The notes beneath the pieces are model-generated. The model was not told the origin of the DNA and searched no databases. It saw nothing but the letters and a program-made list of their open reading frames with translations. Position numbers and translations under genes: made by a program. Shown one piece after another: positions 1-41,525 of a stretch of 59,489 bases of DNA (its first letter is position 1; the number at the start of each line of letters is the position of its first letter). Source of the stretch: a virus (taxonomy: Duplodnaviria; Caudoviricetes); the IMG/VR virus record IMGVR_UViG_3300033562_001863, positions 1 to 59,489 of that record; one strand, written 5' to 3'.

Positions 1-177
1 AAAGTTGCCAGAATATTAAATAGAGAAACTAGCTTTAAGTATCATTTAGAGTTCTTTGAAAATGTAAATGGGCATACTTGCGGCGGTAGTGTCGAAATGG
101 GTCATGGGTACTATATTGGAGATAGGGAAATGGATGACTTAGAGTTAGTCAGTAAACAACTAGAGTTCCCATTCTAG
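1..177 (+). CDS. Partial (5'-truncated) small SH3-like family protein ending QLEFPF
   Basis: Frame 1 is open from base 1: ...EFFENVNGHTCGGSVEMGHGYYIGDREMDDLELVSKQLEFPF*; aligns by eye with ORF 13392-13658. Confidence 0.8.
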   Translation, partial: KVARILNRETSFKYHLEFFENVNGHTCGGSVEMGHGYYIGDREMDDLELVSKQLEFPF

Positions 178-184
178 AAAATAC

Positions 185-213
185 TTGACAAAGTTTTTAT
201 TTCATGGTATAAT
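185..213 (+). promoter_or_regulatory. sigma70-type promoter (repeated family)
   Basis: TTGACA-N17-TATAAT with TG extended -10. Confidence 0.85.
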
Positions 214-264
214 AATAGTACAAGGAAATAGCTCGTATGAGCGAAAAAACTTATAGGGGGTTAT

Positions 265-546
265 ATGAAGAAAGTGTTTTGCCTTTATTCTATTTATGGT
301 TCTGGCGATGGAGACACCGAGTTTCAACTGGAAGCAATCTGCGAAACCATAGAAAGGGCTTTAGAAGAAGCAAAGCGTGTTTTTTCTTATTTTAAAGACC
401 GAAGAATTAACCCTATCAATAAAAAAATGAATATCGAAAATAGCTTTACCTTCATTGGAAGTAGAGAAGACGCAGATGAAATCCACGGATGTGGTTATGA
501 CAATGCTGGCGGTTTCGTAATAGAAGAAACAGAAGTTCTATCGTAA
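265..546 (+). CDS. hypothetical protein
   Basis: ORF with GGGGG RBS after promoter. Confidence 0.75.
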   Translation: MKKVFCLYSIYGSGDGDTEFQLEAICETIERALEEAKRVFSYFKDRRINPINKKMNIENSFTFIGSREDADEIHGCGYDNAGGFVIEETEVLS

Positions 547-589
547 TAAATCCTATTTTAAGATATAATATATTGAGGAAGGGGGAAAG

Positions 590-982
590 ATGAAAATGAG
601 TAAAAATGTGGCAAATGTTGTCACGCTCGTTTCTACGGTACTATTGATACTGTTGATAGTATTCACAAGTTCCTGTGGTTTGGCGGCAAGGTCTGCCTAC
701 GGCGTAGCGCAGCGAACGCTTGACCCGGACAAGATTATCGGGGACTACCACTGGTTTGAAGACCAGTACGGTGTCATCAAGTCGATGGGCTTCAACATCG
801 AGCAGAAACAGGCAGAGTTCAACTCCATGGAAAATGGAGACGCCAGAGAGCGTATGCGAATGGAGCTGTCTGGTATGAAGGCCGTGTATTCAAGGAATGT
901 CCAAGAATACAACTCAAAATCTCGGCAGATAGATAGGGTGCTTTGGAAAAGCAAAGACCTACCTTATGAAATAACGCAGTAG
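590..982 (+). CDS. predicted lipoprotein
   Basis: Basic N-terminus, hydrophobic stretch, lipobox FTSS-C. Confidence 0.7.
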   Translation: MKMSKNVANVVTLVSTVLLILLIVFTSSCGLAARSAYGVAQRTLDPDKIIGDYHWFEDQYGVIKSMGFNIEQKQAEFNSMENGDARERMRMELSGMKAVYSRNVQEYNSKSRQIDRVLWKSKDLPYEITQ

Positions 983-1007
983 CACAAACATCCAAGGGGG
1001 AAAAAGA

Positions 1008-1541
1008 ATGAAGAAGATTTCAATGTTTCTGTTGGCCGTGATAGCTTTCACTATCACTTCGTGCGGACTTGACCTATCAGGCGGCTACGTCCCAACAGCG
1101 CAGCAGACGGCAGAAGTTGCATCTAAGGAATCGGCAAAGGTATCCTCAACTACCATTCCTGTTCCGAATCTCTCCTACTTTCAGGAGAGGCGAACCATCG
1201 CAAAGTGGGCTGAAAGGTGGGATATTCCCAACGTTGTAACCTATGTCTATCTTGTGTCCTACGGGAACATTATTGGATACTATGTGGCTGATGGTAAGCC
1301 CGCTTCTACTCGTTCGTATGTTACTCCTGAAAATACCTTTGTACACGGCGTCGATGTGGGGGAAAGTTATGGAGATGTCCTTGTGGAGGCTCCCGATATA
1401 GACGGAACCTATGGAGAAAACAACTCTGGTATTCGTTTCTTCACGGCAGATGGAGCCGCAGTAGAATGGGGAGGCAATGGAGCAACCTATCTGTATAGCG
1501 ATGTGCCGTTGTCGATAAACGTTCCCTTGCTCCATAAGTAG
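1008..1541 (+). CDS. predicted lipoprotein, paralog of 1590-2093
   Basis: Lipobox ITS-C; shares PVPxLSYFQERRT, DGKPASTRSY, APDIDGTYG with next ORF. Confidence 0.75.
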   Translation: MKKISMFLLAVIAFTITSCGLDLSGGYVPTAQQTAEVASKESAKVSSTTIPVPNLSYFQERRTIAKWAERWDIPNVVTYVYLVSYGNIIGYYVADGKPASTRSYVTPENTFVHGVDVGESYGDVLVEAPDIDGTYGENNSGIRFFTADGAAVEWGGNGATYLYSDVPLSINVPLLHK

Positions 1542-1546
1542 CTCCA

Positions 1547-1576
1547 AGCCCCACCTTTTGGTGGGGCTATTTTTTC
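1547..1576 (+). terminator. Rho-independent terminator
   Basis: AGCCCCACC-TTTT-GGTGGGGCT followed by T-run. Confidence 0.7.
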
Positions 1577-1589
1577 ATAAGGAACAAAA

Positions 1590-2093
1590 ATGAAGAAGTT
1601 CATCGTTCTATTCATTGCCATACTGGTAATGTTTTCTTCGTGTTCTATTGAGCCAAGTGCTCGGCAAAAAGCAGACACCGCTTCAAGGAGTACGGCAGAG
1701 GTAGCCATTTCTACCATTCCAGTCCCACAGCTTTCCTACTTTCAAGAGCGAAGAACAGCCAAAAAGTGGGCAGAGTATTGGGATATTCCCAATGTCATCA
1801 CATACGTCTACGTAGTAGCCAATAATGGCTCCATAGTAGGGTATTTTGTAAGTGATGGTAAACCCGCTTCTACTCGTTCATACCTGACGCCAGAGGAACA
1901 GTTTTATTCCTATGGTAATTCTACTATTGTGTCTGCTCCCGACATAGACGGAACCTATGGAGACAATAACCCCGGCATTCGTTTCTTTACAGCAGAGGGT
2001 GTCCCTGTAGAGGTTGGAGGCAACCTTGGCTATATCTATAGCCCTGCCCCATTGCCGCTCAATGTTCCGGTGCTTACACCAGTCAAGAAGTAG
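1590..2093 (+). CDS. predicted lipoprotein, paralog of 1008-1541
   Basis: Lipobox FSS-C; tandem paralog. Confidence 0.75.
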   Translation: MKKFIVLFIAILVMFSSCSIEPSARQKADTASRSTAEVAISTIPVPQLSYFQERRTAKKWAEYWDIPNVITYVYVVANNGSIVGYFVSDGKPASTRSYLTPEEQFYSYGNSTIVSAPDIDGTYGDNNPGIRFFTAEGVPVEVGGNLGYIYSPAPLPLNVPVLTPVKK

Positions 2094-2112
2094 CTTAAAA
2101 ACTAACTAATAG

Positions 2113-2140
2113 AAAGCCCTACCATTCTGGTAGGGCTTTT
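2113..2140 (+). terminator. Rho-independent terminator
   Basis: AAAGCCCTACCA-TTC-TGGTAGGGCTTTT. Confidence 0.7.
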
Positions 2141-2144
2141 GCTA

Positions 2145-2173
2145 TTTACAAAGTTTTGATTTCAGGGTATAAT
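2145..2173 (+). promoter_or_regulatory. sigma70-type promoter
   Basis: TTTACA-N17-TATAAT. Confidence 0.75.
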
Positions 2174-2194
2174 AATAGGGTGGAGGGCAACAAC

Positions 2195-2419
2195 ATGGCA
2201 ATACAAGATGCTATAAGTTTTATAAAGAGCAAAGCATTTAATGACTTACAGTACCTCTTTGAGCATGAAGTTAGTTATTGCTGGCAAGAAGAAACTCCTG
2301 ACGAGGTAAGGGCAAGTAGGGCTGGAACTATAATAAGAAGAGCAAACGAAGAAATAAAAAAAGCAAAAGAAAAATACAGGTCGAAGGTTGCGGAAAACTC
2401 TAACAGTTCTATCCTATAA
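2195..2419 (+). CDS. hypothetical protein
   Basis: ATG at 2195 after GGAGG. Confidence 0.65.
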   Translation: MAIQDAISFIKSKAFNDLQYLFEHEVSYCWQEETPDEVRASRAGTIIRRANEEIKKAKEKYRSKVAENSNSSIL

Positions 2420-2430
2420 GGAAGGTTACA

Positions 2431-3289: not shown

Positions 3290-3630
3290 ACGACCTTAAT
3301 AGTATAATACTCGAAGGAGTAGCTAAACTGGATGAACTACACGAAGTTCCTGGTGAAGAAGAAGTTTCTATTACTGTTTATAGTACAAAAACAAAAGTAC
3401 AAGTAATAGCTAAAAGCGCACTTGCTTTATCTGTGAGGGATTTTTGTGTTGGAGTAGATGCTTTTAGGTGCAGAGTAGTTGGTAGGCTAGAGTATGATGG
3501 TGGCGGTGTTTTTCTCGTAGCAGAACATATAGAATTCAGGCCCAAGCCCGAAGTTAAAATCCGGATTCCTTTTATCGGTTATCCAATGAAATATAGAGTA
3601 AGAGACAAACAGAAGAAGTTTGATTTCTAA
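3286..3630 (+). CDS. SSB-like OB-fold protein (spirochete-type), ends QKKFDF
   Basis: MNDLNSIILEG...RVVGRL...VAEHIEFRP resembles spirochete SSB-family proteins (recalled, not searched). Confidence 0.6.
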   Translation: MNDLNSIILEGVAKLDELHEVPGEEEVSITVYSTKTKVQVIAKSALALSVRDFCVGVDAFRCRVVGRLEYDGGGVFLVAEHIEFRPKPEVKIRIPFIGYPMKYRVRDKQKKFDF

Positions 3631-5248: not shown

Positions 5249-7006
5249 ATGACAGAAGATGACAAGAACAATCTAGTTATTCTTGACAAAATGTTTGAGA
5301 AAAACTTTGACCTTGACCCAAAGTCGATAGAGTTTGCCAAGAACTGGCTTCGTGAGCCAAAACTTGACCCGAAGTTCGCTGCCATAGTGGGTGATGACTT
5401 TCGCGCTCGGTGGGATATTCCCGTTAGTGATTTTGGTGAAAACAAGGACAAGGCATGGGCTTTGTTCCAGATGTATTTTGGTAGTGGAACTTGCTCTTCG
5501 CTTGGTATAACATATGATGCGTTCTTGTCAAATACCTGTAAGGTTGGTAAGGACAATGTAAAAATAAGCAAAGTTCTCAACAAGTGTTTTGCTTCTAACC
5601 CCGGAATCTTCAAATCGCTTATATCCAATCAAGGTAGGCAAGTTTTTGCTGACCTCAAGGTTCCAGTAGACATTGGGGCCATGATTAGCGAATCGAATGA
5701 AGAGAAAATAAAGGGAAATATAGAAATATATATCACCAGAGCGAACGAAAAAATAGGGCAGATAAAACTACCCAAAGAGCAAGCTGGCTATCAGATAGTT
5801 CTTTCGTTCAACTTTGTTGATTGGCTCCTGGCTTCTACCGGAGATAGTTTCACTTCTTGCATCGGACTTGAAAGCTCTCATGGATATTGGTTCGGCCTCC
5901 CTTTTATGCTCGACGACAGGAGTAGGGGCTTCCTATACATAACAAAGAAGGTCGCTGAAAAGAAAGAATATCTCGGACTTAAGGCAGATCATCTCTCAAA
6001 TAGAGAATGGGTTTTTCTTGCGAACGACGATACGCTTCATGGCTTTAGGTGGTACCCGAAAGATACCCCTGTTGAGATTACTTTTCCTATGTTGTCTAAG
6101 CTAACTGGATTAAGTATTTCCAGTGAAGGATTTACAAAGTCGAAGTATCCTATAGGCGAAAATATTCATGTAAAAAATACAAATGTTTTTTGTACGCCAT
6201 ACCTTGATAATGTTGGAATCCAAAAATACTCAGAGGATGGTAAATATTACTATTCAACCCGTAATGGAAGTTCTGGAGCAAATATTTGTGGAGATAGGCA
6301 CAATGGTTCAAATATATATAATGGCTCTATTTTGCTTAAGACTCTATATAAGACTGGACTTGGCAATATAGAGGCAAGAGATTATTCAGTTTGCTCGCAG
6401 TGTATGGTAAAATACAAAAGAACAGAAATAAGATTTTTTGACGTTGTAAGTGAGGATGGTGTTTCCGAAAGTGTTTGTCCTACTTGCTACGAAAAGAAAT
6501 ATACGAAGTGCGAAGAGTGCGGAAGAACACACATAAAAGAAGAACTAAAGAAAACCAAGGATTATAAAAAAGGCATTTGCAAATCTTGTTTTAGTTCTTT
6601 ATATATAAAATGCGAAAGCTGCGGAGAAATTTCTCTGGCGAGAAGTTTGAAGAATGGCATATGCGAGAAGTGTGTTACAGACACGACTAAAATAGTTATC
6701 TGCGAATACAGCAAGGAACTTCTTGTGAAGAAAAAGGCATTCCCTGTTTACAACAAAGATACGATTTGGTATTTCAAGGATGCTGATGCCTATTCTTTGT
6801 TTGCCGAGGACGAAGGGTTGAACAAGAAAAACTTCAAAGGTTGTGATACTTGTGGAGAGGTAAGCCATAATTCTGTATTGATACAGAGTTACACTGGCGA
6901 AGTGATATGTAGAAAATGCGCTGACAAAGCAGCATTAAAGAAGCAGTTATGGTTTGACTTCAGTGTTCCAAAGAAAAAGAAGGAAAAAGCAGTAAAGGCC
7001 GGGTAA
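5249..7006 (+). CDS. Cys-motif protein (NFxDWxLxSTxxxxxSC family) with C-terminal CxxC zinc ribbons; sub-terminal QLWFDF
   Basis: NFVDWLLASTGDSFTSC...YWFGLP...D..R shared with 45071, 48096, 49529; many CxxC pairs. Confidence 0.75.
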   Translation: MTEDDKNNLVILDKMFEKNFDLDPKSIEFAKNWLREPKLDPKFAAIVGDDFRARWDIPVSDFGENKDKAWALFQMYFGSGTCSSLGITYDAFLSNTCKVGKDNVKISKVLNKCFASNPGIFKSLISNQGRQVFADLKVPVDIGAMISESNEEKIKGNIEIYITRANEKIGQIKLPKEQAGYQIVLSFNFVDWLLASTGDSFTSCIGLESSHGYWFGLPFMLDDRSRGFLYITKKVAEKKEYLGLKADHLSNREWVFLANDDTLHGFRWYPKDTPVEITFPMLSKLTGLSISSEGFTKSKYPIGENIHVKNTNVFCTPYLDNVGIQKYSEDGKYYYSTRNGSSGANICGDRHNGSNIYNGSILLKTLYKTGLGNIEARDYSVCSQCMVKYKRTEIRFFDVVSEDGVSESVCPTCYEKKYTKCEECGRTHIKEELKKTKDYKKGICKSCFSSLYIKCESCGEISLARSLKNGICEKCVTDTTKIVICEYSKELLVKKKAFPVYNKDTIWYFKDADAYSLFAEDEGLNKKNFKGCDTCGEVSHNSVLIQSYTGEVICRKCADKAALKKQLWFDFSVPKKKKEKAVKAG

Positions 7007-9171: not shown

Positions 9172-9479
9172 TGTCTAAACTATACAGGGTAGTTAGAGAA
9201 GAAGAGGCTATAGAAAAGGTTAGAAAATGCTACCGTATTTCTAAAGAGAAAGCCACTGAAAGAGTAAAATATGGAAACTTATTTCATTTTTCTCCTGGTA
9301 TTAGTGTAATACCTTATTCTTTGAAAAGGAGACTTGGAAAATCTTTTAGAAGAGTTGATGAAAAAACAATAAGATTTTCTGGAGAAAAAGATACTCTTAC
9401 TTATAGTAAAGAAAGAGTAGAAGAGCTTTTAAATGTATATATTTTCTCCGAGGCAGAACAATATGAGTTCGAGTTTTAA
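9171..9479 (+). CDS. hypothetical protein ending QYEFEF
   Basis: ORF; C-terminal tail motif. Confidence 0.7.
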   Translation: MSKLYRVVREEEAIEKVRKCYRISKEKATERVKYGNLFHFSPGISVIPYSLKRRLGKSFRRVDEKTIRFSGEKDTLTYSKERVEELLNVYIFSEAEQYEFEF

Positions 9480-9723
9480 TTTTAACGATACTGACGAGAA
9501 AATAAAGGTAACTCTTGTTTCTAACTGCAAAATGATAATAAAAGAAAAAAATTGTGAGGGTGTTAGGTGTAGTATTATGACTTGCCCTTTTTATTTTGAG
9601 AGTGGTAGTTCTGACTGCGTGTCTATTTTTGGATATTTTGGTAGAGACGATGATAAACCAATGATTTGGTTCAAAAAATGGTTAAAAAAATACACATCAA
9701 TGCAATATGAGTTTGATTTCTAA
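9463..9723 (+). CDS. Cys-rich small protein ending QYEFDF
   Basis: Paralog of 2431 and 10761; start uncertain (9433 or 9463). Confidence 0.7.
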   Translation: MSSSFNFNDTDEKIKVTLVSNCKMIIKEKNCEGVRCSIMTCPFYFESGSSDCVSIFGYFGRDDDKPMIWFKKWLKKYTSMQYEFDF

Positions 9724-14359: not shown

Positions 14360-14791
14360 ATGAATAAAGAAATAGATGAACTATTTGATAAACTTTATAT
14401 TTATATTTATAAAAAATACTATAATACACCTTGGCCAAAGCCAGATTTCTTTAGTGAAAGAGAAGGTATCGGCATTTTTTTTGATAGGTTCAAAATGGTA
14501 GGTGGTAAAGAAATAAAAATAGATGGAATAAAGGCATTGTTAAAAGAAGATAAAATATTAAGAAAGTTAGCGTATAACACATTTTCATCAAATGCTTTTT
14601 ACGAAATAGAGAGGTGCCCAGCGAGAGATGGGTTCTTTTGTTCTTGTAATAAAATATTTGAAGTAAATAATGAAAGTCTATATTCTGGATTTGGCGGCTC
14701 TTCTTGCGATAGATACTTTAGACAAGCCGTAAGTAAAAAAGTTAAAGCTCTCAAAGCAAAAGATGTTGATCAGCTTGAGTTTGAGTTCTAA
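14360..14791 (+). CDS. hypothetical protein ending QLEFEF
   Basis: ORF; tail motif. Confidence 0.7.
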   Translation: MNKEIDELFDKLYIYIYKKYYNTPWPKPDFFSEREGIGIFFDRFKMVGGKEIKIDGIKALLKEDKILRKLAYNTFSSNAFYEIERCPARDGFFCSCNKIFEVNNESLYSGFGGSSCDRYFRQAVSKKVKALKAKDVDQLEFEF

Positions 14792-14810
14792 TAAGTTAGG
14801 GGATAACTTT

Positions 14811-15083
14811 ATGGCTAGTGATTTTTTTGTGGGTGGTAAAAAAGTAACAATGACGCTGGAAAGTTTCTCCAAGAACCCAGTTAGAAATGACTTACATATC
14901 CCAAAAAAATGTATAATGGAAATGATAGAAAAGTGTAGAAAAGAAGACTTTACAATTATTAAGGATTGCAGCAAATCTGGAAATGACTTTTGCAAGTATT
15001 TATATACCTTTGAATATAGTCCATATGTATGGCCGACAGAATGGTTTTTTGAAACAAAAAAACAGCTTGAGTTTGAGTTCTAA
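14811..15083 (+). CDS. small protein ending QLEFEF
   Basis: ATG 14811 after GGGG RBS. Confidence 0.7.
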   Translation: MASDFFVGGKKVTMTLESFSKNPVRNDLHIPKKCIMEMIEKCRKEDFTIIKDCSKSGNDFCKYLYTFEYSPYVWPTEWFFETKKQLEFEF

Positions 15084-16431: not shown

Positions 16432-16502
16432 GTTCCCTTCGTCTATCGGTAGGACAACACATTCTCAGTGTGTAAAGATTGGTTCGACTCCAGTAGGGAA
16501 TA
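16432..16502 (+). tRNA. tRNA-Glu(CTC) copy 1
   Basis: Cloverleaf; anticodon arm ACACA-TTCTCAG-TGTGT. Confidence 0.85.
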
Positions 16503-21593: not shown

Positions 21594-21884
21594 ATGCTTA
21601 AACTTGGAGATAAAGTAAGTTGCCTTGAAGAAGGAATAGACGAAGCCATAGTGGGTGGTATTTTTATTCCCGAAGACACAGATGAAACCCAGGTTCTATT
21701 GGTATTTCAAAAAATGTTTTCAAATACAATATCCGGGCACAATGGCTTTTGGATTAAGCCATATGCTAAAGATAAAAAATATTCTTATTTAGATAAAGAT
21801 TTCAGCAAAGAACAATACTCAAGTTATTGGGTTAGACCGCAGGAATGTAAGATTTTACGAACGCAGTTTGAGTTTGTATTCTAA
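21594..21884 (+). CDS. small SH3-like protein ending QFEFVF
   Basis: LKLGDKV..GH; tail motif. Confidence 0.7.
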   Translation: MLKLGDKVSCLEEGIDEAIVGGIFIPEDTDETQVLLVFQKMFSNTISGHNGFWIKPYAKDKKYSYLDKDFSKEQYSSYWVRPQECKILRTQFEFVF

Positions 21885-26150: not shown

Positions 26151-26179
26151 TTGACGAAGTTTTGACTTCGTGGTATAAT
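26151..26179 (+). promoter_or_regulatory. promoter with palindromic spacer (region ~26144-26206 duplicated at ~26799-26861)
   Basis: TTGACGAAGTtttgACTTCGTggTATAAT. Confidence 0.8.
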
Positions 26180-26218
26180 AATAGCACGGAAGAAAAAGTT
26201 AGAAAGGGGATATATTTT

Positions 26219-26509
26219 ATGGTTCCACTAAGGTATAGAGAAAATATAAGAAAATATATCATAGGAAACAAAAGTCCAAAGTCATTTGACGTAGTAAACT
26301 TTTATCATAGCCCTTATAACATTACTTCTTTTTTTGAAAAAAACTTTAGCAAGCGTGATAAAAATGAAAATATTACAGAATATATCAATAGGATTGCTAA
26401 GAATTTTTTATGGCCCGATTGTTTGAATGACAAAGAACTGGTTTCTGCTTTAAATTGTTTTGGATGTTTAGAAATAGCCAATTTCTATATGTTAAAATAC
26501 AATAAATAG
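26219..26509 (+). CDS. paralog of 24892-25215 lacking the QxEFxF tail
   Basis: ATG 26219 (MVPL...). Confidence 0.65.
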   Translation: MVPLRYRENIRKYIIGNKSPKSFDVVNFYHSPYNITSFFEKNFSKRDKNENITEYINRIAKNFLWPDCLNDKELVSALNCFGCLEIANFYMLKYNK

Positions 26510-27313: not shown

Positions 27314-27321
27314 TTTTATTT

Positions 27322-27392
27322 GTTCCCTTCGTCTATCGGTAGGACAGTTTGTTCTCAGCAAACAAAGATTGGTTCGACTCCAGTAGGGAATA
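27322..27392 (+). tRNA. tRNA-Glu(CTC) copy 2
   Basis: GTTTG-TTCTCAG-CAAAC. Confidence 0.85.
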
Positions 27393-27400
27393 TAGTTCAT

Positions 27401-27729: not shown

Positions 27730-27800
27730 GTTCCCTTCGTCTATCGGTAGGACGCTCCCTTCTCAGGGGAGAAAGATTGGTTCGACTCCAGTAGGGAATA
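27730..27800 (+). tRNA. tRNA-Glu(CTC) copy 3
   Basis: CTCCC-TTCTCAG-GGGAG. Confidence 0.85.
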
Positions 27801-28151: not shown

Positions 28152-28222
28152 GTTCCCTTCGTCTATCGGTAGGACAACACGTTCTCAGCGTGTAAAGATT
28201 GGTTCGACTCCAGTAGGGAATA
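28152..28222 (+). tRNA. tRNA-Glu(CTC) copy 4
   Basis: ACACG-TTCTCAG-CGTGT. Confidence 0.85.
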
Positions 28223-28827: not shown

Positions 28828-28898
28828 GTTCCCTTCGTCTATCGGTAGGACAGTTTGTTCTCAGCAAACAAAGATTGGTTCGACTCCAGTAGGGAATA
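28828..28898 (+). tRNA. tRNA-Glu(CTC) copy 5
   Basis: GTTTG-TTCTCAG-CAAAC. Confidence 0.85.
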
Positions 28899-29216: not shown

Positions 29217-29287
29217 GTTCCCTTCGTCTATCGGTAGGACGGTTTGTTCTCAGCAAACAAAGATTGGTTCGACTCCAGTAGGGAATA
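29217..29287 (+). tRNA. tRNA-Glu(CTC) copy 6
   Basis: GTTTG-TTCTCAG-CAAAC. Confidence 0.85.
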
Positions 29288-32599: not shown

Positions 32600-32673
32600 G
32601 GGCTTGTAGCTTATCTAGCAGAAGCACCTGATTTGCAATCAGGATATAGTCGGGGCAGCACCGATCAGGTCCA
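32600..32673 (+). tRNA. tRNA-Ala(TGC), non-canonical T-loop
   Basis: G3.U70; CCTGA-TTTGCAA-TCAGG; T-loop GGCAGCA. Confidence 0.75.
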
Positions 32674-32710: not shown

Positions 32711-32786
32711 CAGGGTGTATCTCAACAGTCTTCTAAACTGTAGCCGAGTAAATGGATCAATGCAGGTTCGATTCCTGTCTCCCTGA
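32711..32786 (+). tRNA. rearranged tRNA-like RNA, Arg(TCT)
   Basis: ACAGT-CTTCTAA-ACTGT enclosed by CTC/GAG; GG loop 3' of it; canonical T-arm. Confidence 0.55.
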
Positions 32787-33773: not shown

Positions 33774-34211
33774 ATGGGTTTTTCTATTATTATGTTTTTG
33801 ACAACAATGGCTGGTATGATTTATATTATTAAAAAAAATAATAATATAAATGCTTTTTATTTCATACTTATTCCAGTATTCATAACTATACTTATTATTA
33901 TTTTTACTTTTGCAGAGGGAGTTGGCAAAGGGTTTTTTGAAATAGAGAGAATACCAGTTGTAGAAAATATGTATGAGGGAAAATATCTTTTTAAAAGAGA
34001 TGTTGATGGCGGCTATTCTGTTTTAGAAAAAAGCAACAATAGTCTCGTCTATACTAAAATAATAAATGTTGATAAAGACAGTTCATATTCTCCAGATGAT
34101 AAACTGTATTTCATAGTATATGAAACTAAAGTTTCAAAGAGTGATTTTTTTAGAATAGGTGTAAAATCATTTAAACTAAAAGAATATTCCTTCAGTAGGA
34201 TAAAGAAATGA
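33774..34211 (+). CDS. membrane protein
   Basis: Two N-terminal TM segments. Confidence 0.6.
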   Translation: MGFSIIMFLTTMAGMIYIIKKNNNINAFYFILIPVFITILIIIFTFAEGVGKGFFEIERIPVVENMYEGKYLFKRDVDGGYSVLEKSNNSLVYTKIINVDKDSSYSPDDKLYFIVYETKVSKSDFFRIGVKSFKLKEYSFSRIKK

Positions 34212-34546
34212 AAGTAATAGTAGCAGGTGGAAGAAACTTTGAGCCAAAAAGCGAACACAAAAAATGGCTTAAAGAAACAATAAAAAAACTAAATGCTACT
34301 GAAATAGTTTGTGGTATGGCAAAAGGCGCTGATTTCTTTGGCTATGAAGTAGCCAAAGAAATGTATATTCCAGTAAAAGAGTTTCCAGCAAAATGGGCTT
34401 TGTTTGGTAAAGGTGCTGGATACTTAAGAAATGAGGATATGGCGCAATATGCTGATGCCTGTATATTATTTCCTGGAGGAAAGGGAACCGCTATAATGGA
34501 AATATTAGCAGCAAGATATAAACTGACTATCGTAAAATGGGAGTAA
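34208..34546 (+). CDS. SLOG (YspA/DUF2493) family protein
   Basis: VAGGRNF, GMAKGAD, AGYLRN..MA, FPGGKGT. Confidence 0.85.
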   Translation: MKVIVAGGRNFEPKSEHKKWLKETIKKLNATEIVCGMAKGADFFGYEVAKEMYIPVKEFPAKWALFGKGAGYLRNEDMAQYADACILFPGGKGTAIMEILAARYKLTIVKWE

Positions 34547-34551
34547 TCTTC

Positions 34552-34580
34552 TTTACAAAGTTTTAGTTCTATATTATAAT
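34552..34580 (+). promoter_or_regulatory. sigma70-type promoter
   Basis: TTTACA-N17-TATAAT. Confidence 0.7.
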
Positions 34581-34586
34581 ATATAC

Positions 34587-35255
34587 ATGGGGGAACAAAT
34601 GACTTATTTTTTTAGAAGATTATTCGGTGTAAAAAGTAATAGAACGAAGAACAAGATTATTACTTCTATGGATAAACTCAAAGCATCTGGAATAAAGCCC
34701 CCTTTTGTTTTTACTGTATTTGATACAGAGACAAATGGCCTTAATGCCAGAGACGGAGTTCTTTCTGTTTCTGCTGAAAAATGGTTTTTTGACGGTATTT
34801 CATACACACAGATTGGAACTTTTGAAAGGTTCTATTTTCCAAAATGGTTCCTTAATAAAAAAGCAATAGCAGTCAATGGCCTTAATAGAAAAGAGATTAG
34901 AAAAAGAAGAAAGGGACATAATTGGCCACGACTTTGGTATAAAGACATTGGCTCCCTTGCTTCTTTTATAGGAGCAGACACGGATGTGATAGTAGGGCAT
35001 AATGTGAATTTCGACCGTAAATTCTATAGATTCATGGATAACCGAAGATTATTCTGCACTATGTTTTCAAACATTAAAAAAGTAAATAGAAGAAATGAAA
35101 ATGGCAAGCTCATAGTTCCTAAACTAATAGGAACTGCCGAAGCTTATGAGATAAAAGTAGAAGAAGAAAAACTACATTTTTCATACTATGATGTGCATCT
35201 CACTGTAGAGGTTTTCAAGAAAATGGTAGATGAAAGTTTTATTCCAATATTTTAA
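34587..35255 (+). CDS. DEDDh 3'-5' exonuclease (DnaQ-like)
   Basis: FDTETNG, GHNVNFD, LH....DV. Confidence 0.85.
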   Translation: MGEQMTYFFRRLFGVKSNRTKNKIITSMDKLKASGIKPPFVFTVFDTETNGLNARDGVLSVSAEKWFFDGISYTQIGTFERFYFPKWFLNKKAIAVNGLNRKEIRKRRKGHNWPRLWYKDIGSLASFIGADTDVIVGHNVNFDRKFYRFMDNRRLFCTMFSNIKKVNRRNENGKLIVPKLIGTAEAYEIKVEEEKLHFSYYDVHLTVEVFKKMVDESFIPIF

Positions 35256-35282
35256 CAATAGAAACGGAGAAGAAATGAGAGT

Positions 35283-35807
35283 ATGATTAAAGAAATATTT
35301 ATAAATACTATCAGGGGTGACATTTCCCTTAAAAAGGAACAAAGCAAAAAAGAAACTGGTAGTTTTGCGGAACTATTAGGTTTTCCAAGCGTTCAAAGTT
35401 TTTCTATAAAGCTCGGTAACACAATAGAAAGTTGTTTCAGGAACTATGTTTTATCAAAAGGTATTGTTTTATCTAAGGGTTCTTTGGGCGGGCATCAAAT
35501 AGATTTGCTCTTTGAGTATGAAGATACAAAGTATTATTTTGAAATAAAAAATAATGTAAATCTTGATACAGAAAAATCTATAGCTGTTGTAAAAAAAATA
35601 ACTGATATGTGGAAATACGCAGATATATCTGCTTGTCTTTCTTTTAGAAAAGCAACGAATGAAGAGTTCTCAAGGTTTTCAAAACCTATTTTACAACCAT
35701 ACATATATGGGTATAACGACTTCTTTGATATATTTGGAGATTATCTGCCGGAAGCAGATTTTAATGAAATAATAGAAGAAATACTAGCCGTTTTTGAAGG
35801 TTCCTGA
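35283..35807 (+). CDS. putative PD-(D/E)xK restriction endonuclease
   Basis: IDLLF...YFEIK..NLDTEK; coupled to MTase. Confidence 0.6.
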   Translation: MIKEIFINTIRGDISLKKEQSKKETGSFAELLGFPSVQSFSIKLGNTIESCFRNYVLSKGIVLSKGSLGGHQIDLLFEYEDTKYYFEIKNNVNLDTEKSIAVVKKITDMWKYADISACLSFRKATNEEFSRFSKPILQPYIYGYNDFFDIFGDYLPEADFNEIIEEILAVFEGS

Positions 35808-36607
35808 TGACAAATAAAGAAACTGTGTTACCATTATTTAGATGGAGTGGCGGAAAGAGAAGTGAGATTGATTTATTCAGGCAGTTCTATCCAGAAAACT
35901 TTTCTACTTATGTAGAACCTTTCTTTGGAGCTGGCGCTGTATTCTTTGATTTACAATTCGCAGGAAATAATATCATAAGCGATATCCACCCAGAAAGTAT
36001 TAACTATTTAAAGGAAATACAAAAAGGGAATGGAAGAAAAATATATGATATGCTTAAAGAAGCAAGAAATGAAGAAGATTATTATTATTATATAAGAGAT
36101 GACTTTGAAATAAAAGACGATACTGATTCTGCTTTCAGGTTTATTTATCTCAGGAAAACTTGCTACCGTGGAATGTTAAGGTATAATAAAAAAGGCGGGT
36201 TCAACATTCCTTTTGGCAGGAGTAAATCTTTTACTTTTGAAGAAATACTAGACCCTAAATACTTTGAACTTCTATCAAGAACAACAATCTTGAACGAAGA
36301 TTTTAGAACAGTCATGGCAAAAACAGAAAGTCCAGAAAGTTTTGTTTTTTTAGACCCTCCATACGATTCTGTCTTCACTGATTATGGTTACTGTACGTTT
36401 GGCAGAAAAGACCATGAAGATTTAGCTAACATATTTAAATCTACTAAAAGCAAGTGCCTACTTATAATAGGTGGAACCCCTCTTATACAGGAGTTGTACG
36501 AACCTTATATTATTGGTAGTTATAGTAAAAAATATGCCTTCAAGATACATAGCGGTCGAGTATCATCTGAAATAGACAAAGAGCATTTAGTAATAAAAAA
36601 CTATTGA
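35807..36607 (+). CDS. DNA adenine methyltransferase (D12/Dam class)
   Basis: WSGGK, EPFFGAGA, FLDPPY. Confidence 0.9.
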   Translation: MTNKETVLPLFRWSGGKRSEIDLFRQFYPENFSTYVEPFFGAGAVFFDLQFAGNNIISDIHPESINYLKEIQKGNGRKIYDMLKEARNEEDYYYYIRDDFEIKDDTDSAFRFIYLRKTCYRGMLRYNKKGGFNIPFGRSKSFTFEEILDPKYFELLSRTTILNEDFRTVMAKTESPESFVFLDPPYDSVFTDYGYCTFGRKDHEDLANIFKSTKSKCLLIIGGTPLIQELYEPYIIGSYSKKYAFKIHSGRVSSEIDKEHLVIKNY

Positions 36608-36632
36608 CAAAGTTTCTATTATAGAGTATAAT
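36604..36632 (+). promoter_or_regulatory. sigma70-type promoter
   Basis: TTGACA-N17-TATAAT. Confidence 0.8.
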
Positions 36633-36652
36633 AAATATGAGGGAAAAATAAA

Positions 36653-36814
36653 ATGCAGAAAGCTATTTTTGTTCAAGATACTACTAAGGTTTTAAATGAC
36701 CATCTTGAAAATGGATGGGAAGTGTTAAAAATAGAAACTTCTAAACCAAGTTTTGGCGGAAATAGTTCCAGATCTGATGCTGGGCTTTTTCTAGTTATTT
36801 TGGAAAAGAAGTAA
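36653..36814 (+). CDS. 53-aa hypothetical protein
   Basis: MQKAIFVQ...LENGWEV...ILEKK; GAGG RBS. Confidence 0.55.
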   Translation: MQKAIFVQDTTKVLNDHLENGWEVLKIETSKPSFGGNSSRSDAGLFLVILEKK

Positions 36815-37039
36815 AAGAAGTTATATTGTAAATATAAATGTATAGGGTTTTAAAACGAGGCAATACTTTCCCTTAAAAAAAGTATATTAACCCATACCAC
36901 TTGTCGCCTTGGCAAAATGTAAAAAAGTTTATACAGTAATACAAGTGGTATATTTTTATTTTTATTGGGTCGTTGGCCGAGAGGTTTAAGGCATCTGTCC
37001 TGAATTATCATTTTGTGTTTTTTCAGACAAGATAATAAT

Positions 37040-37756
37040 ATGAAAAAAACAAAATGGATATGCCCTAAATGCGGTTTTGAGATAAAAAATAGCCGTGAGA
37101 AGCATTTAAATTATTGTAAAGGATACGGCCCCAGGAGCAAGAGGCATAAGATAATAAGAGGCTCCAAAGAGTTTAGCGAAAAAGTTTCAGACGGATTAAA
37201 GAAAAAATATTTAGATGATCCAGATTTAAAAAATAGAGTTAGAAATGGCCTAAAAAAATCATTTTTAGAAGAAAAGTATGATGGTAAAGCAAAAACTGAA
37301 AAACTAGAAGTAGAAAGAAGATTAAAAATATCTCTGACTGCTAAGAAAAACAAGATTTCTGGAGGATTGAGAAAAGGATCAGGAAGAGGTAAAAAGGGAT
37401 GGTATAAAGGATTTTGGTGTGATTCGTCATGGGAACTAGCTTATGTAATATATTGTTTAGACCATAATATAAAATTTTCAAGAAATAACAAAAAATTTGA
37501 ATACATATGGGAAAAAGAAGTACATCATTATACTCCTGATTTTATTATGGAAGATGGACTTTATATTGAAATTAAAGGGTATTTGACTAAACAAGTAGAG
37601 GAAAAAATAAGGCAATTTAATTATCCAATAGAAATAATAGATAAAAATAAAATTATAAAATATGTGGATTATGTCAAAGATAAGTATGGTAAAGATTTTA
37701 TTGAATTATATGAAAATGGAAGAAATAACTGGGAGGGCGTACCAGTGCTGCTTTGA
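37040..37756 (+). CDS. putative homing endonuclease (PD-(D/E)xK, TnsA-like C-terminal domain)
   Basis: CPKCG Zn finger; DSSWE..Y, YTPDF, IEIKG; ATG 37040. Confidence 0.75.
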   Translation: MKKTKWICPKCGFEIKNSREKHLNYCKGYGPRSKRHKIIRGSKEFSEKVSDGLKKKYLDDPDLKNRVRNGLKKSFLEEKYDGKAKTEKLEVERRLKISLTAKKNKISGGLRKGSGRGKKGWYKGFWCDSSWELAYVIYCLDHNIKFSRNNKKFEYIWEKEVHHYTPDFIMEDGLYIEIKGYLTKQVEEKIRQFNYPIEIIDKNKIIKYVDYVKDKYGKDFIELYENGRNNWEGVPVLL

Positions 37757-38280: not shown

Positions 38281-38282
38281 CT

Positions 38283-39238: not shown

Positions 39239-39268
39239 AAGTTTTTTTATATCGTATATAATAATAGT

Positions 39269-39469
39269 ATGAAGAGAGAAGAACGTTTTATAGATTTTTG
39301 TTTTGGTAGTTATCGTGAAATGCTACAAATACATTATCTACCTGTTATTGAGATATATTCTCATAGGCATGGAGATAAGAAATACGGAAATCTGATACAT
39401 TTTCATGTTTTATTTCAGTTTATATTTTGGTATGCTGAAATACAAGTAGGAAGATATTTTAAAGAATAA
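39269..39469 (+). CDS. hypothetical protein
   Basis: ATG 39269. Confidence 0.45.
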   Translation: MKREERFIDFCFGSYREMLQIHYLPVIEIYSHRHGDKKYGNLIHFHVLFQFIFWYAEIQVGRYFKE

Positions 39470-39472
39470 ACT

Positions 39473-39545
39473 GCTTTGATAGCTCAGATGGCAGAGCATC
39501 TGCCTTGTAAGCAGAATGTCGAGTGTTCGATTCACTCTCAAAGCT
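39473..39545 (+). tRNA. tRNA-Thr(TGT)
   Basis: Canonical cloverleaf. Confidence 0.9.
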
Positions 39546-39584
39546 TGTAATCCCCCGTGGGCTGCTAATTAGCCCCTTTTTTAT

Positions 39585-39658
39585 GCGAGCTTAACTCAGT
39601 TGGTCAGAGTGTCTCGTTTACACCGAGAAAGTCGAAGGTTCAAATCCTCCAGTTCGTA
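39585..39658 (+). tRNA. tRNA-Val(TAC)
   Basis: TCTCG-TTTACAC-CGAGA. Confidence 0.85.
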
Positions 39659-39661
39659 AAT

Positions 39662-39733
39662 GCGGAAGTAACTCAATGGTAGAGTTTCAGATTTCCAATC
39701 TGACTGTTGCGGGTTCAAGTCCCGTCTTCCGCT
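39662..39733 (+). tRNA. tRNA-Gly(TCC)
   Basis: TCAGA-TTTCCAA-TCTGA. Confidence 0.9.
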
Positions 39734-40069
39734 TAATGAAGAAAGAAAAAATGCTTTTTATATTAGAATGGATATATAAATCTTTAACGTTCACTAGATA
39801 TAGAAATAGAGAACTAGAAAAAGATATTGAAGATCTAATAAGAGACATTAAAAAAGATACTAAAGATTGTTGAACACATTAAAAAGAATTTAGTGGGCGA
39901 GGCCGCAAGGAGGATTGGCGGCTGAATGTACGGGACTAAAGTGGCAATCTCGATGATATATAACGCCACCACCAGGCCGACGCTGGACACTTACAACACT
40001 GGCTGAAATAACGCCGCGAGATAGGGAAGTGCTATCCGCAACTCCTTGATGCGTGAAACGGGGATTTTT

Positions 40070-40151
40070 AGGAGCGTGGCAGACCGGGTAATGTCCCTAT
40101 CTTATAAGTAGTGTGCTCGAAAGAGAGTAGGTTCGATTCCTACCGCTCCTA
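40070..40151 (+). tRNA. tRNA-Ile(TAT) with long variable arm
   Basis: AGGAGCG/CGCTCCT; loop CTTATAA. Confidence 0.7.
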
Positions 40152-40152
40152 T

Positions 40153-40254
40153 AAATCATAGACCTTTAATGGTATTAGCTTGGTTCGACTCCAAGGCTGG
40201 GGTTAGCTTCGGCTTACCCTAGTGTTGTCATCGCGGAGGGATGGCCTATGATTT
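40153..40254 (+). ncRNA. Y-RNA (YrlA)-like circularly permuted tRNA mimic
   Basis: Closing stem, then T-arm, loop-closed acceptor-like stem, GG-containing D-like arm. Confidence 0.5.
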
Positions 40255-40258
40255 TTTT

Positions 40259-40286
40259 ATAACCTATTCAATATTGAATAGGTTAT
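40259..40286. terminator. perfect 28-bp palindrome / terminator
   Basis: ATAACCTATTCAAT|ATTGAATAGGTTAT followed by T-run. Confidence 0.55.
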
Positions 40287-40305
40287 TTTTATTAAGGGGA
40301 TAAAC

Positions 40306-40557
40306 GTGAAACTTTTTATAGGGCAGAAGGTTTTCTGTAATTTTGGCTCTTGGAAGAACCACACTGGTATTATAGCTGTAATTGTTGCCGATGAAGTCGG
40401 TATTGACTTTATTAAAGACCCTAGAACAAACCTGGGTCATAATCTAAGAGGGCACATAAACACTGATACTGGCTGGTGGTATCCAGGGTATATTTTTGAA
40501 GATAAAGAGTATTTCACGATTATTAAAGAAAATAAGCAACTTGAATTTGACTTCTAA
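40306..40557 (+). CDS. small SH3-like protein ending QLEFDF
   Basis: GH.L.G...TGWWYP family. Confidence 0.75.
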   Translation: MKLFIGQKVFCNFGSWKNHTGIIAVIVADEVGIDFIKDPRTNLGHNLRGHINTDTGWWYPGYIFEDKEYFTIIKENKQLEFDF

Positions 40558-40563
40558 AAGTTC

Positions 40564-40592
40564 TTGACGAAGTTTTGACTTCGTGGTATAAT
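40564..40592 (+). promoter_or_regulatory. promoter with palindromic spacer
   Basis: TTGACGAAGTtttgACTTCGTggTATAAT. Confidence 0.8.
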
Positions 40593-40613
40593 AATAGTAC
40601 GGGGGAAAGAAAA

Positions 40614-40958
40614 GTGAAAAAAAATATTTTTTTTATTGCGTTTATCTTTTCTGTTTTCTGCGCTTTTTCACAGGTTCCTAACGACAATATTTATGGAGAT
40701 TATAAAATAGATTGTGAAGGGTGCCCGTATTCTAGGATGTTTGTTTCTATAGATGGAACACTCTATCTTTTTCAAGATAAAAATACTAATCCTACCATTT
40801 ATGTTTATGATTTTATAGATAACCTTATGTTTATAGGAAACGCTGGTTATTATTACTCTTTCAAAAAAGAAAATGATATATGGGTTCTTACCATAATACC
40901 TGCTTTTGGAGAAGCTGGATACAATAAAGTTGTATGTTATAAACTCGGGAGTTATTGA
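40614..40958 (+). CDS. secreted hypothetical protein
   Basis: GTG 40614; signal peptide KKNIFFIAFIFSVFCAFS. Confidence 0.6.
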   Translation: MKKNIFFIAFIFSVFCAFSQVPNDNIYGDYKIDCEGCPYSRMFVSIDGTLYLFQDKNTNPTIYVYDFIDNLMFIGNAGYYYSFKKENDIWVLTIIPAFGEAGYNKVVCYKLGSY

Positions 40959-41242
40959 TGAGTTTTAAAGTTGGAGATAAAGTATTAGTTAAAAAAAATG
41001 TATGGGACAAAAAAGAACTAAATAATAAAATAGGCAAAATAGTAAAAATGAGTTCAGATAAAAGAGAATGTATTATTGAATTTAGAGAAAGCATGAAATT
41101 CTGTCACGACGGATGTAGATATTATATTGATGGAGTAGCAGATATTGTAGGAAAAGATGGATATTGCTGGGGCTTTATTATTAGTGGAGGGAACGATATT
41201 ATTGAGTTAGTTGGAGACAAGCAACTTGAGTTTGCTTTCTAA
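40955..41242 (+). CDS. small SH3-like protein ending QLEFAF
   Basis: FKVGDKV...IEF..H.G..GK.GYCW. Confidence 0.75.
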   Translation: MMSFKVGDKVLVKKNVWDKKELNNKIGKIVKMSSDKRECIIEFRESMKFCHDGCRYYIDGVADIVGKDGYCWGFIISGGNDIIELVGDKQLEFAF

Positions 41243-41252
41243 GGATAAACTT

Positions 41253-41525
41253 ATGAGACCACTTAAAATTGGAGACAGAGTAGTTTGTATTAGAGATTAC
41301 GACAATGGCGGGTGGGCGGGATTAAGTGGAACTGTTGTTGCCATATATGAAAAACGTGATGATGTTGGGGTTGAGTTTGATAGACAATCTAATAAAGGAT
41401 TTGGCTATGGGCACGACCTTAATAAAAGAATTGAAAATGATAACGGTTGGTGGTTTCCTTATTTCGATATATATTATTATGTAAAAATAGTAGAAAAAAA
41501 TAAGCAACTTGAATTTGATTTTTAG
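41253..41525 (+). CDS. small SH3-like protein ending QLEFDF
   Basis: ATG 41253; GGW.G..GTVV..VGVEF..GH.L..GWWFP. Confidence 0.75.
   Translation: MRPLKIGDRVVCIRDYDNGGWAGLSGTVVAIYEKRDDVGVEFDRQSNKGFGYGHDLNKRIENDNGWWFPYFDIYYYVKIVEKNKQLEFDF

Follow-up and report, generated by a model that had tools for sequence, protein, structure and literature searches.

A shared C-terminal tail on small proteins of a large tailed phage: a probable docking motif for the DNA sliding clamp

Introduction

Many unrelated proteins, among them Pol II, Pol IV, Pol III alpha, Hda, and MutS, dock in one cleft of the bacterial DNA sliding clamp, the beta clamp DnaN, by means of short clamp-binding motifs (CBMs) such as QL[SD]LF. 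The canonical forms are Q-phi-x-[LM]-[FL] and Q-phi-x-[LM]-x-[FL]. These motifs frequently lie in disordered C termini, and phage display has selected the sequence LQLELDF. The Gln occupies subsite II of the clamp and the last two hydrophobic residues occupy subsite I, while position 2 is aliphatic, with Leu preferred, but is termed tolerant (PMC11139829). For example, Pol I carries QLELF, and the C terminus of Escherichia coli alpha reads QVELEF (10.64898/2026.05.27.728225). This article concerns IMG/VR record IMGVR_UViG_3300033562_001863, a stretch of DNA from a virus of the Caudoviricetes in which about 19 tiny proteins end in a shared tail, Q-[L/F/Y]-E-F-x-F-COOH, that fits these motifs in most respects. 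The tail probably serves as a short linear motif for docking on a DNA sliding clamp. The window, meaning the whole stretch analyzed, is the entire record of 59,489 bases. CheckV puts its completeness at about 25%, so the whole genome should be roughly 240 kb.

Phages and mobile elements are known to exploit sliding clamps in several ways. In phage T4, the tails that bind the phage clamp are interchangeable and sit on divergent linkers, and gp33, a protein of 112 residues, has a body that holds RNA polymerase and a tail that holds the clamp (PMC2988020). These T4 tails read ...ASLDFLFG in gp43, ...PSLDFLYEAND in gp55, and ...NTLDFLL in gp33 (NC_000866). MuC and Mor, small regulators of phage Mu, have N- and C-terminal CBMs (QHDLF and QPDLF) that bind host DnaN, and their overexpression is toxic via the clamp (PMC12867686). 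Staphylococcus phage Twort gp168 and G1 gp240 target DnaN and shut off host replication, according to a review table (PMC3594737). Among insertion sequences, C-terminal IS200 peptides bind the E. coli beta clamp, whereas Q1/L4 mutants do not. The IS200 peptides compete with the Pol IV little finger, an archaeal IS200 has a PCNA motif at that site, and the authors argue that C-terminal clamp motifs are easily gained and lost (PMC3971601). IS608 TnpA interacts with DnaN in a two-hybrid assay, and mutating the putative motif had no effect (PMC5027513).

A strictly C-terminal motif

The 106 predicted proteins of the window comprise 16,861 amino acids. The strict motif, Q[LFY]EF.F, occurs 16 times in them: 15 copies are exactly C-terminal, one stops two residues short of the end, and none is internal. 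The looser pattern Q..F.F occurs 20 times, with 17 copies terminal, 1 near-terminal, and 2 internal. How many would be expected by chance? An earlier note on this DNA, made from the letters alone, had suggested a comparison with shuffled C termini, and the excess is far above that expectation: 20,000 draws gave a mean of 0.0001 strict and 0.0076 loose tails, with a maximum of 1. A broad clamp-motif expression tells the same story of position, with 18 of its 23 matches no more than two residues from the end; the other 5, which are internal, are at the level of chance (5.4 expected anywhere in shuffled proteins). As a background, 100 unrelated IMG/VR loci (941,176 bases; 8,449 stop-to-stop open reading frames [ORFs] of at least 40 amino acids) contain no strict tail and 1 loose tail, whereas the window under the same rule (618 ORFs) yields 15 strict and 17 loose tails. 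The Q..F.F ending is found on 18 plus-strand ORFs, one of them with two extra residues, and on none of the minus-strand ORFs of the window. Every ORF end and tail quoted in the earlier note is present as given, including the variants at 3630 and within 5249-7006 (Table 1). The latter, QLWFDF, is possibly an internal copy of the motif; a search of the ESM Atlas with the 585-amino-acid protein that contains it returned viral hypotheticals only.

The composition of the tail is tightly constrained. Position 1 is Gln throughout, in the 19 terminal tails and the internal copy alike, and the last residue is Phe in 19 of 19. Position 2 is Leu in 9 tails, Phe in 5, Tyr in 4, and Lys in 1. Phe occupies position 4 in the internal copy and in 17 of the 19 terminal tails; Leu stands there, within the window, only in the QFELF tail at 2718.

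C-terminal tags on unrelated proteins are a hallmark of degrons. Could the tail be a shared degron or a handle for some other hub, such as a Clp or Lon protease or its adaptor, a chaperone, RNA polymerase, or a packaging or localization factor? The early proteins would then meet one common fate, for instance, timed removal. That 15 of 16 strict motifs are exactly terminal would suit this explanation, as the free carboxylate could matter; all of the carriers are early genes, and the invariant Glu is not accounted for by clamp rules. Familiar degron classes include the ssrA-type LAA and the MuA-type, and the tail resembles neither. Variants that look functional also tolerate C-terminal extensions (QFEFNFSS in the window, QFELPFGENNEI in the homologue P0056, and T4 gp55). 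Moreover, IS200 transposases carry it at the published clamp site, and a DnaN model with controls, described below, favors the clamp. A degron or other hub therefore seems unlikely.

About eight kinds of carrier

The earlier note had counted about 20 proteins from unrelated families. A shared tail on several families is indeed what is found, but the tail is spread over roughly 8 independent body types, not about 20. BLASTP sorts the carriers into groups A, B, C (Cys-rich), and D, the last comprising one tagged protein and one untagged paralogue, and leaves 8 singletons (Table 1). Profile comparison goes further, uniting families A and B with the 30696 protein in a single SH3-like superfamily of 8 members, with probabilities of 97.8% and 95.5% that are partly raised by the tails themselves. 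Inheritance thus accounts for part of the carrier count, and with about 8 carriers belonging to one superfamily, fewer independent acquisitions are needed than had been implied. The 21884 protein aligns with family A in the first strand only. In a Pfam scan of 17 tagged proteins, none scored above the cutoff; SH3_12 and SH3_13 fell just below it.

The tail as a conserved module

How is the tail attached to its carriers? In an AlphaFold2 model of family A, made for the protein ending at 41525 (mean predicted local distance difference test score [pLDDT] of 80.1), a small beta barrel has strands up to residue 69, followed by a short helix and a strand to residue 79, and the last 11 residues are coil with a mean pLDDT of 56. 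Family A thus has the flexible terminus outside the fold that is typical of CBMs. Foldseek against the PDB found only weak KOW/SH3-like matches to this model (E of 5e-3 or more). The model of family C is poor (pLDDT 49.5); it is helical, with an unstructured tail (tail pLDDT below 50). The linker before the tail is variable in length and Lys-rich (38 of 180 residues). The two members of family D are 47% identical over 96 amino acids, and the untagged paralogue stops where the linker and tail of its sister begin, so that it is a natural minus-tail comparator.

The tail is also retained in homologues from elsewhere. A HMMER search of 1.84 billion representative proteins with the family A profile gave 180 hits, and every small, single-domain hit whose alignment reaches the end of the profile is tailed: QLELDF, QLEFSF (in two of them), QYEFKF, QIEFDF, QFEFEF, QLEFEF (twice), QMEFEF, and QLEFDF. 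In P0056, the tail QFELPF is followed by six residues (QFELPFGENNEI), and a word-index search added homologues ending in QLEFDF and QYELPF. The tailed homologues sit on metagenome contigs of 614 to 5,554 bases, and more distant multidomain homologues lack the tail. In an alignment of 17 rows, 13 of them from other metagenomes, body identity is 28 to 47%, and the columns without variation are four core residues and, in the tail, the Q, the E, and the final F. At position 4, 14 rows have F and 3 have L (QLELDF, QYELPF, and QFELPF); Ile and Met occur at position 2. Nonsynonymous drift of the tail among homologues, which had been named as grounds for abandoning the idea of a tag, is not seen at these three positions. 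Within the 13 metagenomic homologues, no other part is as well conserved as the tail. The tail is a module under purifying selection, appended to a fold.

Ten more distant single-domain SH3-like homologues of other metagenomes (P0065, P0073, P0084, P0090, P0091, P0103, P0123, P0127, P0146, and P0156) have other acidic-hydrophobic tails, such as ...DLEEVL, ...LDNLFAPV, ...FDSLFSESEE, and ...ILSLMF. One type of barrel may be fitted with different docking tails from phage to phage.

Peptide or DNA element?

Is the conserved object the peptide or the DNA that encodes it? Twenty-two strong sigma-70-type promoters in the window are nearly identical; they follow the form TTGAC/TTTAC-RAAG...TGnTATAAT, in which the -10 element is extended. 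AAGTTTT is conserved directly after the -35 element, and several promoters are identical over 29 nucleotides. The exact pattern has 12 matches, compared with none in 100 shuffles. Promoters of this type suggest that the host has a canonical sigma-70/sigma-A and speak against Bacteroidota. Eight tails lie no more than 20 nucleotides upstream of a promoter of this family, and two more precede weaker variants. The tail-encoding sequence might therefore act as DNA or RNA, for example as a terminator, a processing site, or the upstream portion of a promoter, with the shared peptide a mere by-product. The codons of the tail could be taken in the same sense, as they are strongly biased at two positions: Glu is encoded by GAG in 13 of 15 tails, compared with 26% of Glu codons overall (292 of 1,138), and the final Phe is encoded by TTC in 11 of 15, compared with 28% overall.

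Several observations speak against a DNA element. Fourteen of the 22 promoters have no tail-like DNA upstream, their common part beginning only at TAAAA, and 9 of the 19 tails have no promoter downstream; on these counts the tail as part of a promoter or UP element was rejected. The motif is read in a single frame and on a single strand throughout, and positions 1, 2, and 5 vary synonymously or conservatively (CAA in 9 and CAG in 6 tails at Gln; CTT, CTA, CTG, TAT, and TTT at position 2). As described, homologues in other metagenomes retain the peptide, and unrelated phages and bacteria encode the identical peptide with other codons. An explanation at the level of nucleic acid alone is thus extremely unlikely. 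The earlier argument that synonymous variation reveals selection on the peptide holds insofar as the codons do vary; they do not vary freely, as the GAG bias makes plain. This bias may reflect selection for accuracy at a critical residue or translation gated by tRNA. The six tRNA-Glu(CUC)-like genes of the window correspond to the GAG codon.

The sliding clamp as the probable partner

What, then, does the peptide bind? The complex of the 90-amino-acid family A protein ending at 41525 with two chains of Bacillus subtilis DnaN was modeled with ESMFold2 using the 17-row alignment. It scored 0.71 (runs of 0.71, 0.70, and 0.71), compared with 0.24 for the best of 3 controls. In the calibration of the tool, this mark is reached by 58 of 80 solved complexes and by 2 of 110 mismatched pairs. 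At least 95% of the contacts are common to the runs, and the partner pLDDT is at least 83. In the model, only residues 80 to 88 and 90 of the partner, that is, the tail, touch the clamp, and they are predicted to do so at DnaN residues 159, 162, 179, 181-182, 184, 250, 255, 287-289, 329, 331, 355, and 373-378. The modeled Q85 adjoins residues 182, 331, 373, and 375, and F88 adjoins 179, 181, 182, 184, and 250. By numbering offset only, these residues appear to match E. coli subsite II (H175, Y323, and M362-M364) and subsite I (T172, G174, H175, L177, and P242); at the C-terminal end, the mapping is based on E. coli residues 1-365 aligned to residues 3-378 of the 4TR6 chain. Modeling of the tail with spirochete DnaN had been proposed in the earlier note. 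In the model used here, whose clamp is a stand-in and not a spirochete DnaN, the tail alone is predicted to dock. The model supports, but does not prove, binding.

A second line of evidence comes from bacterial insertion sequences. A scan of 185,579 species genomes (one per prokaryote species) for K-Q-L-E-F-D-F-TAA returned 14 stretches. Six of these encode IS200-type Y1 transposases of 144 amino acids that end in ...HRHEEK[IT]PKQLEFDF, and the two that were tested match PF01797 (E of 4e-36 and 1e-40; domain at residues 10-129). The carriers come from three metagenome-assembled genomes (MAGs) of different phyla, one delta-proteobacterial, one from the Pseudomonadota, and one from the Rikenellaceae, and a second delta-proteobacterial MAG has a 60-amino-acid fragment with the tail. 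Since an insertion sequence has no clamp of its own, these transposases are independent evidence that bacterial DnaN reads QLEFDF-COOH. The exact QLEFDF variant was not seen in the main text of the IS literature consulted; the published list of IS200 motif variants is in supplementary table S5 of PMC3971601. In five GTDB MAG contigs (L211, L220, L221, L223, and L224), ...PKQLEFDF stands 15 residues past the Pfam domain.

Whose clamp would it be? With a genome of roughly 240 kb, the phage probably has a replisome of its own, and the partner might be exclusively a phage-encoded clamp of the T4 (gp45-like) type. The tagged proteins would then be accessories of the phage replisome or clamp-activated transcription factors, like T4 gp33 and gp55. 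The T4 endings SLDFLF(G), SLDFLY.., and TLDFLL do agree with the tail at four positions (2, 3, 4, and 6), among them position 4 with its Phe, which is atypical of beta-clamp motifs. In addition, gp33 is likewise a protein of 112 residues with such a tail, and the tail sheath encoded in the window is distantly T4-like. The T4 tails, however, have S or T in place of the invariant Gln, a mark of beta and PCNA motifs. Bacterial IS200 transposases, which can use only a host clamp, end in the identical tail, and it is conserved in homologues across many metagenomes. No phage clamp is visible in the 25% of the genome at hand, in a search that covered DnaN-type clamps only. This version of clamp docking is accordingly an improbable one. 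That the partner is the host beta clamp, DnaN, comes close to an even chance.

The tail is also found in other phages. A scan of IMG/VR for Q-L-E-F-[DE]-F-TAA gave at least 101 stretches. Of 100 loci examined, 62 have the motif as the in-frame end of an ORF of at least 40 amino acids, and several of these look noncoding, such as nine copies of a 44-amino-acid frame. The carriers include a coiled-coil family with a divergent body and a constant QLEFEF, VRR-NUC-like endonucleases (phrog_93), an HNH endonuclease, and a TreK-family protein (PF24229); in Staphylococcus phage K and Aeromonas phage 4L372D, the TreK homologues are without the tail. Five large IMG/VR records with the tail have exactly one copy each, so that the swarm is special to the phage studied here.

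Two further carriers raise a different possibility. The small subunit (R2) of ribonucleotide reductase (RNR) binds the large subunit (R1) through its C-terminal tail, and R2-tail peptides inhibit RNR. Two IMG/VR phage R2 proteins (PF00268; E of 4e-52 and 4e-28) end in ...GQLEFDF and ...MQFEFDF (L145:4103-5221 and L192:5491-6582), and another phage R2 ends in ...DDDTFKDFSF, with the same [DE]-F-x-F-COOH ending. Might the swarm be a set of R2-like tails docking on R1? R1 is known for one client, R2, and not for a swarm. The tails of R2 proteins are diverse (...SFEGLSL in genome G002), with no conserved Gln or Glu, and in genome G001 the tail of a small QLEFDF protein differs from that of the genome's own R2. 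The tail is shared by transposases and nucleases, clients of the clamp type. Finally, there is no RNR gene in the window, PF00268 being absent from its 50 larger proteins. R1 is thus a very unlikely partner. The tailed phage R2s either have one natural type of R1-binding tail or also touch a clamp.

An earlier suggestion that the host is a spirochete could not be established. A Spirochaetia MAG contig (L212; 6,037 bases, 25% G+C) does encode a 74-amino-acid, zinc-ribbon-like protein that ends in ...NEKQLEFDF, but the contig has no protein similarity to the window. The gene for this protein adjoins one of integrase size.

Overall, the proposal of a docking tag on variable domains, with the clamp as the first candidate, has fared well. 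The tag is supported by the C-terminal-only excess, the coil tail, and its conservation in homologues, and the tail is not promoter DNA. The clamp as candidate draws on the fit to CBMs and T4 tails, the IS200 transposases, and the DnaN complex model, in which binding is predicted.

Points against clamp docking

One challenge to the clamp as partner is that the tail does not obey all of the published rules. It agrees with canonical CBMs at positions 1 and 5/6 and departs from them at position 4, where Leu or Met is expected. Natural E. coli CBMs have only Leu or Met at this position, and Phe weakened an inhibitory peptide (PMC11139829). Phe at position 4 is known only from the B. subtilis MutS motif QLSFF, which bound both of the clamps tested, 1.5- to 3-fold more weakly than QLSLF. 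Hexamer CBMs are also 10- to 20-fold weaker on the B. subtilis clamp than on the E. coli clamp (10.64898/2026.05.27.728225). Position 2 is aromatic (Y or F) in 9 of the 19 tails, against an aliphatic definition, and Glu 3 is invariant here, against a position that is tolerant in known CBMs. The partner would therefore read something that beta clamps are not known to read.

Other points that weigh on the same side concern the partner and the model. There is no gene for a DnaN-type clamp in the window, which covers about 25% of the genome; only clamps of this type were searched for. B. subtilis DnaN was used as a stand-in for the host clamp, and since many clamp-peptide complexes have been solved, the docking score may reflect likeness to them. 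The two tailed phage R2 proteins would be expected to bind R1 through their C termini, and the GAG and TTC bias amounts to an extra nucleotide- or translation-level constraint that clamp docking leaves unexplained. We know of no phage or cell with so many clamp clients among tiny ORFans, and the biological rationale for so many is one that we infer.

A working model and its implications

How might such a system operate? Host sigma-70 RNA polymerase would transcribe many short operons early from near-identical, strong promoters. About 19 small early proteins would be made, each with a fold (an SH3/KOW-like barrel, a member of the Cys-rich helical family, or one of several ORFans) followed by a short, Lys-rich linker and the tail. 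The tail would lie extended in the hydrophobic cleft of the clamp, with the Gln in subsite II and the two Phe residues in subsite I. The tagged proteins would be early effectors or adaptors: docking would concentrate the cargo domains on clamp-loaded DNA and replication forks, and the tails would jointly compete with host polymerases and repair proteins for the same cleft.

A bolder idea, possible but doubtful, is that the clamp cleft serves as a general postal address. The tail would be a detachable, six-residue label on at least 8 ORFan folds, about one sixth of the proteins of the region, with its own grammar (Phe 4 and an invariant Glu), and its production might be gated by the tRNA supply of the phage, with GAG codons and six tRNA-Glu(CUC)-like genes. 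If this were true, the clamp interactome would be larger than that of any known phage, and effectors would flood host replication forks, displacing host clients.

Why does the tail matter? Most early genes of large phages are ORFans with no experimental handle, and the shared tail gives about 19 of them one testable partner. If that partner is the host beta clamp, the implications are 3-fold. (i) The carriers would be the largest described set of viral clamp clients. (ii) They would form a natural library of cargo domains aimed at the replisome. (iii) The tail would be a natural CBM variant, with Phe 4 and a fixed Glu, of relevance to the clamp as an antibacterial target. The rule Q-x-E-F-x-F-COOH would also pick out clamp clients in other settings, such as IS200 transposases, phage nucleases, and perhaps RNR, and could be used for annotation.

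Genomic setting

The carriers and promoters are listed in Table 1. Transcription is rightward at positions 1-52,000 and leftward in the final 7.5 kb, where genes for a tail sheath, distantly T4-like and myoviral, and a head-tail adaptor are found. The rightward part is an early or accessory region. It contains 22 to 24 tRNA genes (ARAGORN and Rfam) and encodes Lar-like proteins, a Dam methylase, an RNA ligase, a polynucleotide kinase, HD and metallophosphoesterases, a radical-SAM protein, an M20 peptidase, and numerous tiny ORFans.

Table 1. Tail-bearing ORFs, an untagged paralogue, promoters, and tRNA-Glu(CUC)-like genes of the window
Feature	Coordinates	Strand	Tail	Remarks
SH3-like family B, 3' part of ORF	1..177	+	QLEFPF	5' end beyond window edge; promoter next at 185
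Cys-rich family C, 95 amino acids	2431..2718	+	QFELF	Pentamer variant
Singleton, 114 amino acids	3286..3630	+	QKKFDF	Variant tail
Viral hypothetical, 585 amino acids	5249..7006	+	QLWFDF	At residues 566-571, 14 residues before end
Singleton, 104 amino acids	9165..9479	+	QYEFEF	No downstream promoter
Cys-rich family C	9433..9723	+	QYEFDF	Start probably Met at about 9463
Cys-rich family C, 79 amino acids	10761..11000	+	QYEFDF	
SH3-like family A, 89 amino acids	12168..12437	+	QYEFSF	
SH3-like family B, 88 amino acids	13392..13658	+	QLEFSF	
Singleton, 143 amino acids	14360..14791	+	QLEFEF	
Singleton	14763..15083	+	QLEFEF	Probable start Met at about 14811, after GGGG..ATG
SH3-like family A, 98 amino acids	17566..17862	+	QFEFVF	
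96-amino-acid protein	21594..21884	+	QFEFVF	Family A likeness in first strand only
Family D, 107 amino acids	24892..25215	+	QFEFNF	Followed by SS
Singleton, 120 amino acids	25254..25616	+	QFEFSF	
Untagged family D paralogue	26162..26509	+		Ends ...MLKYNK
Remote SH3-like superfamily member, 70 amino acids	30484..30696	+	QLEFSF	
Singleton, 125 amino acids	32802..33179	+	QLYFDF	Variant tail
SH3-like family A, 83 amino acids	40306..40557	+	QLEFDF	
SH3-like family B, 95 amino acids	40955..41242	+	QLEFAF	
SH3-like family A	41211..41525	+	QLEFDF	Database form P0001 is 90 amino acids, start about 41253
Promoters 1-11	185, 2145, 4894, 9729, 12741, 14115, 15093, 17869, 20520, 21890, 25623	+		
Promoters 12-22	26151, 26806, 31257, 34552, 36604, 40564, 41533, 41783, 43981, 46264, 49482	+		
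tRNA-Glu(CUC)-like genes, six	16432-16502, 27321-27393, 27730-27800, 28152-28222, 28828-28898, 29217-29287	+		

Relatives of the phage are scarce. Among isolate phages, none was found by megablast with 10 kb or by tblastn with family A, and none was found in IMG/VR with family A, whether as a single protein or as a 6-row alignment. A search of IMG/VR with the tail sheath gave a sole match, one distant 10-kb locus. The nearest matches of the sheath and the peptidase are in Listeria/Bacillus, Flavobacterium, and Campylobacter phages, at 27 to 38% identity. A metagenome scan with the exact promoter pattern gave 0 matches; a looser pattern gave 100 stretches in IMG/VR, none of them related and none with the strict tail. 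Six metagenome loci returned by a 3-row alignment search were rejected, as they encode a different, 150-amino-acid fusion protein without the tail.

The tRNA genes of the rightward region have features of their own. The six tRNA-Glu(CUC)-like genes are identical in their acceptor, D, and T arms, and their anticodon stems differ by compensatory changes (ACACA/TGTGT, GTTTG/CAAAC, CTCCC/GGGAG, and ACACG/CGTGT); two of the six reach the Rfam tRNA gathering score. Two extra Rfam tRNA matches with no ARAGORN call lie at 32600-32673 and 32711-32786 on the plus strand (40.2 and 35.6 bits). A set of RNA-repair-like genes at about 33774-37756, with neighbors, adjoins the tRNA clusters and encodes an RNA ligase with an OB domain, an AAA_33 kinase, a cREC_REC protein, and HD and metallophosphoesterases. 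With an RNA ligase and a kinase nearby, one speculation is that the tRNA-Glu(CUC)-like genes provide decoys or spares against a host anticodon nuclease.

Comparison with known systems

How does the locus compare with the systems described at the outset? CBMs, T4 tails, Mu MuC, transposase motifs, and phage inhibitors of DnaN are already known. The literature searched, the motif strings included, yielded neither this variant of the motif nor a phage region in which a single clamp-type tail is common to about one sixth of the proteins, drawn from about 8 unrelated ORFan families. With CBMs the tail shares Gln at position 1, a hydrophobic residue at position 2, and hydrophobic residues at positions 4 and 6 (or 5), in the same register. 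It likewise has hexamer and pentamer forms (the latter being QFELF at 2718) and a disordered, C-terminal site, and the pattern of many unrelated clients for one cleft would be the same. Besides the departures at positions 2 to 4 discussed above, the carriers are about 19 tiny phage ORFans and not DNA enzymes, and their clamp binding is predicted.

The IS200/IS605 TnpA proteins match in sequence, the MAG copies having an identical ...KQLEFDF beyond the Y1 domain, but they belong to cellular mobile elements with one such protein each. As for RNR, the likeness lies in the Q[LF]EFDF ending of two phage R2s, with F-x-F or L-x-L endings in others; there is no R2 among the tagged proteins of the window (17 scanned with Pfam). 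Mu MuC/Mor offers a precedent for small phage proteins that use CBMs on the host beta clamp, differing in that it is one protein family with pentamer motifs rather than a multifamily set. Twort gp168 and G1 gp240 are also small, early phage proteins aimed at DnaN, but they are single inhibitors.

The T4 tails share with those of the window L at position 2, an acidic residue at 3, Phe at 4, an aromatic residue or Leu at 6, and a variable linker. They differ in having Ser or Thr in place of Gln at position 1, in the number of carriers (three T4 proteins compared, against about 19 here), and in their partner, which is a known phage clamp, whereas none is seen in the window. By analogy, T4 gp33, with a body for one partner and a tail for the clamp, is the nearest mechanistic model for a single tagged protein.

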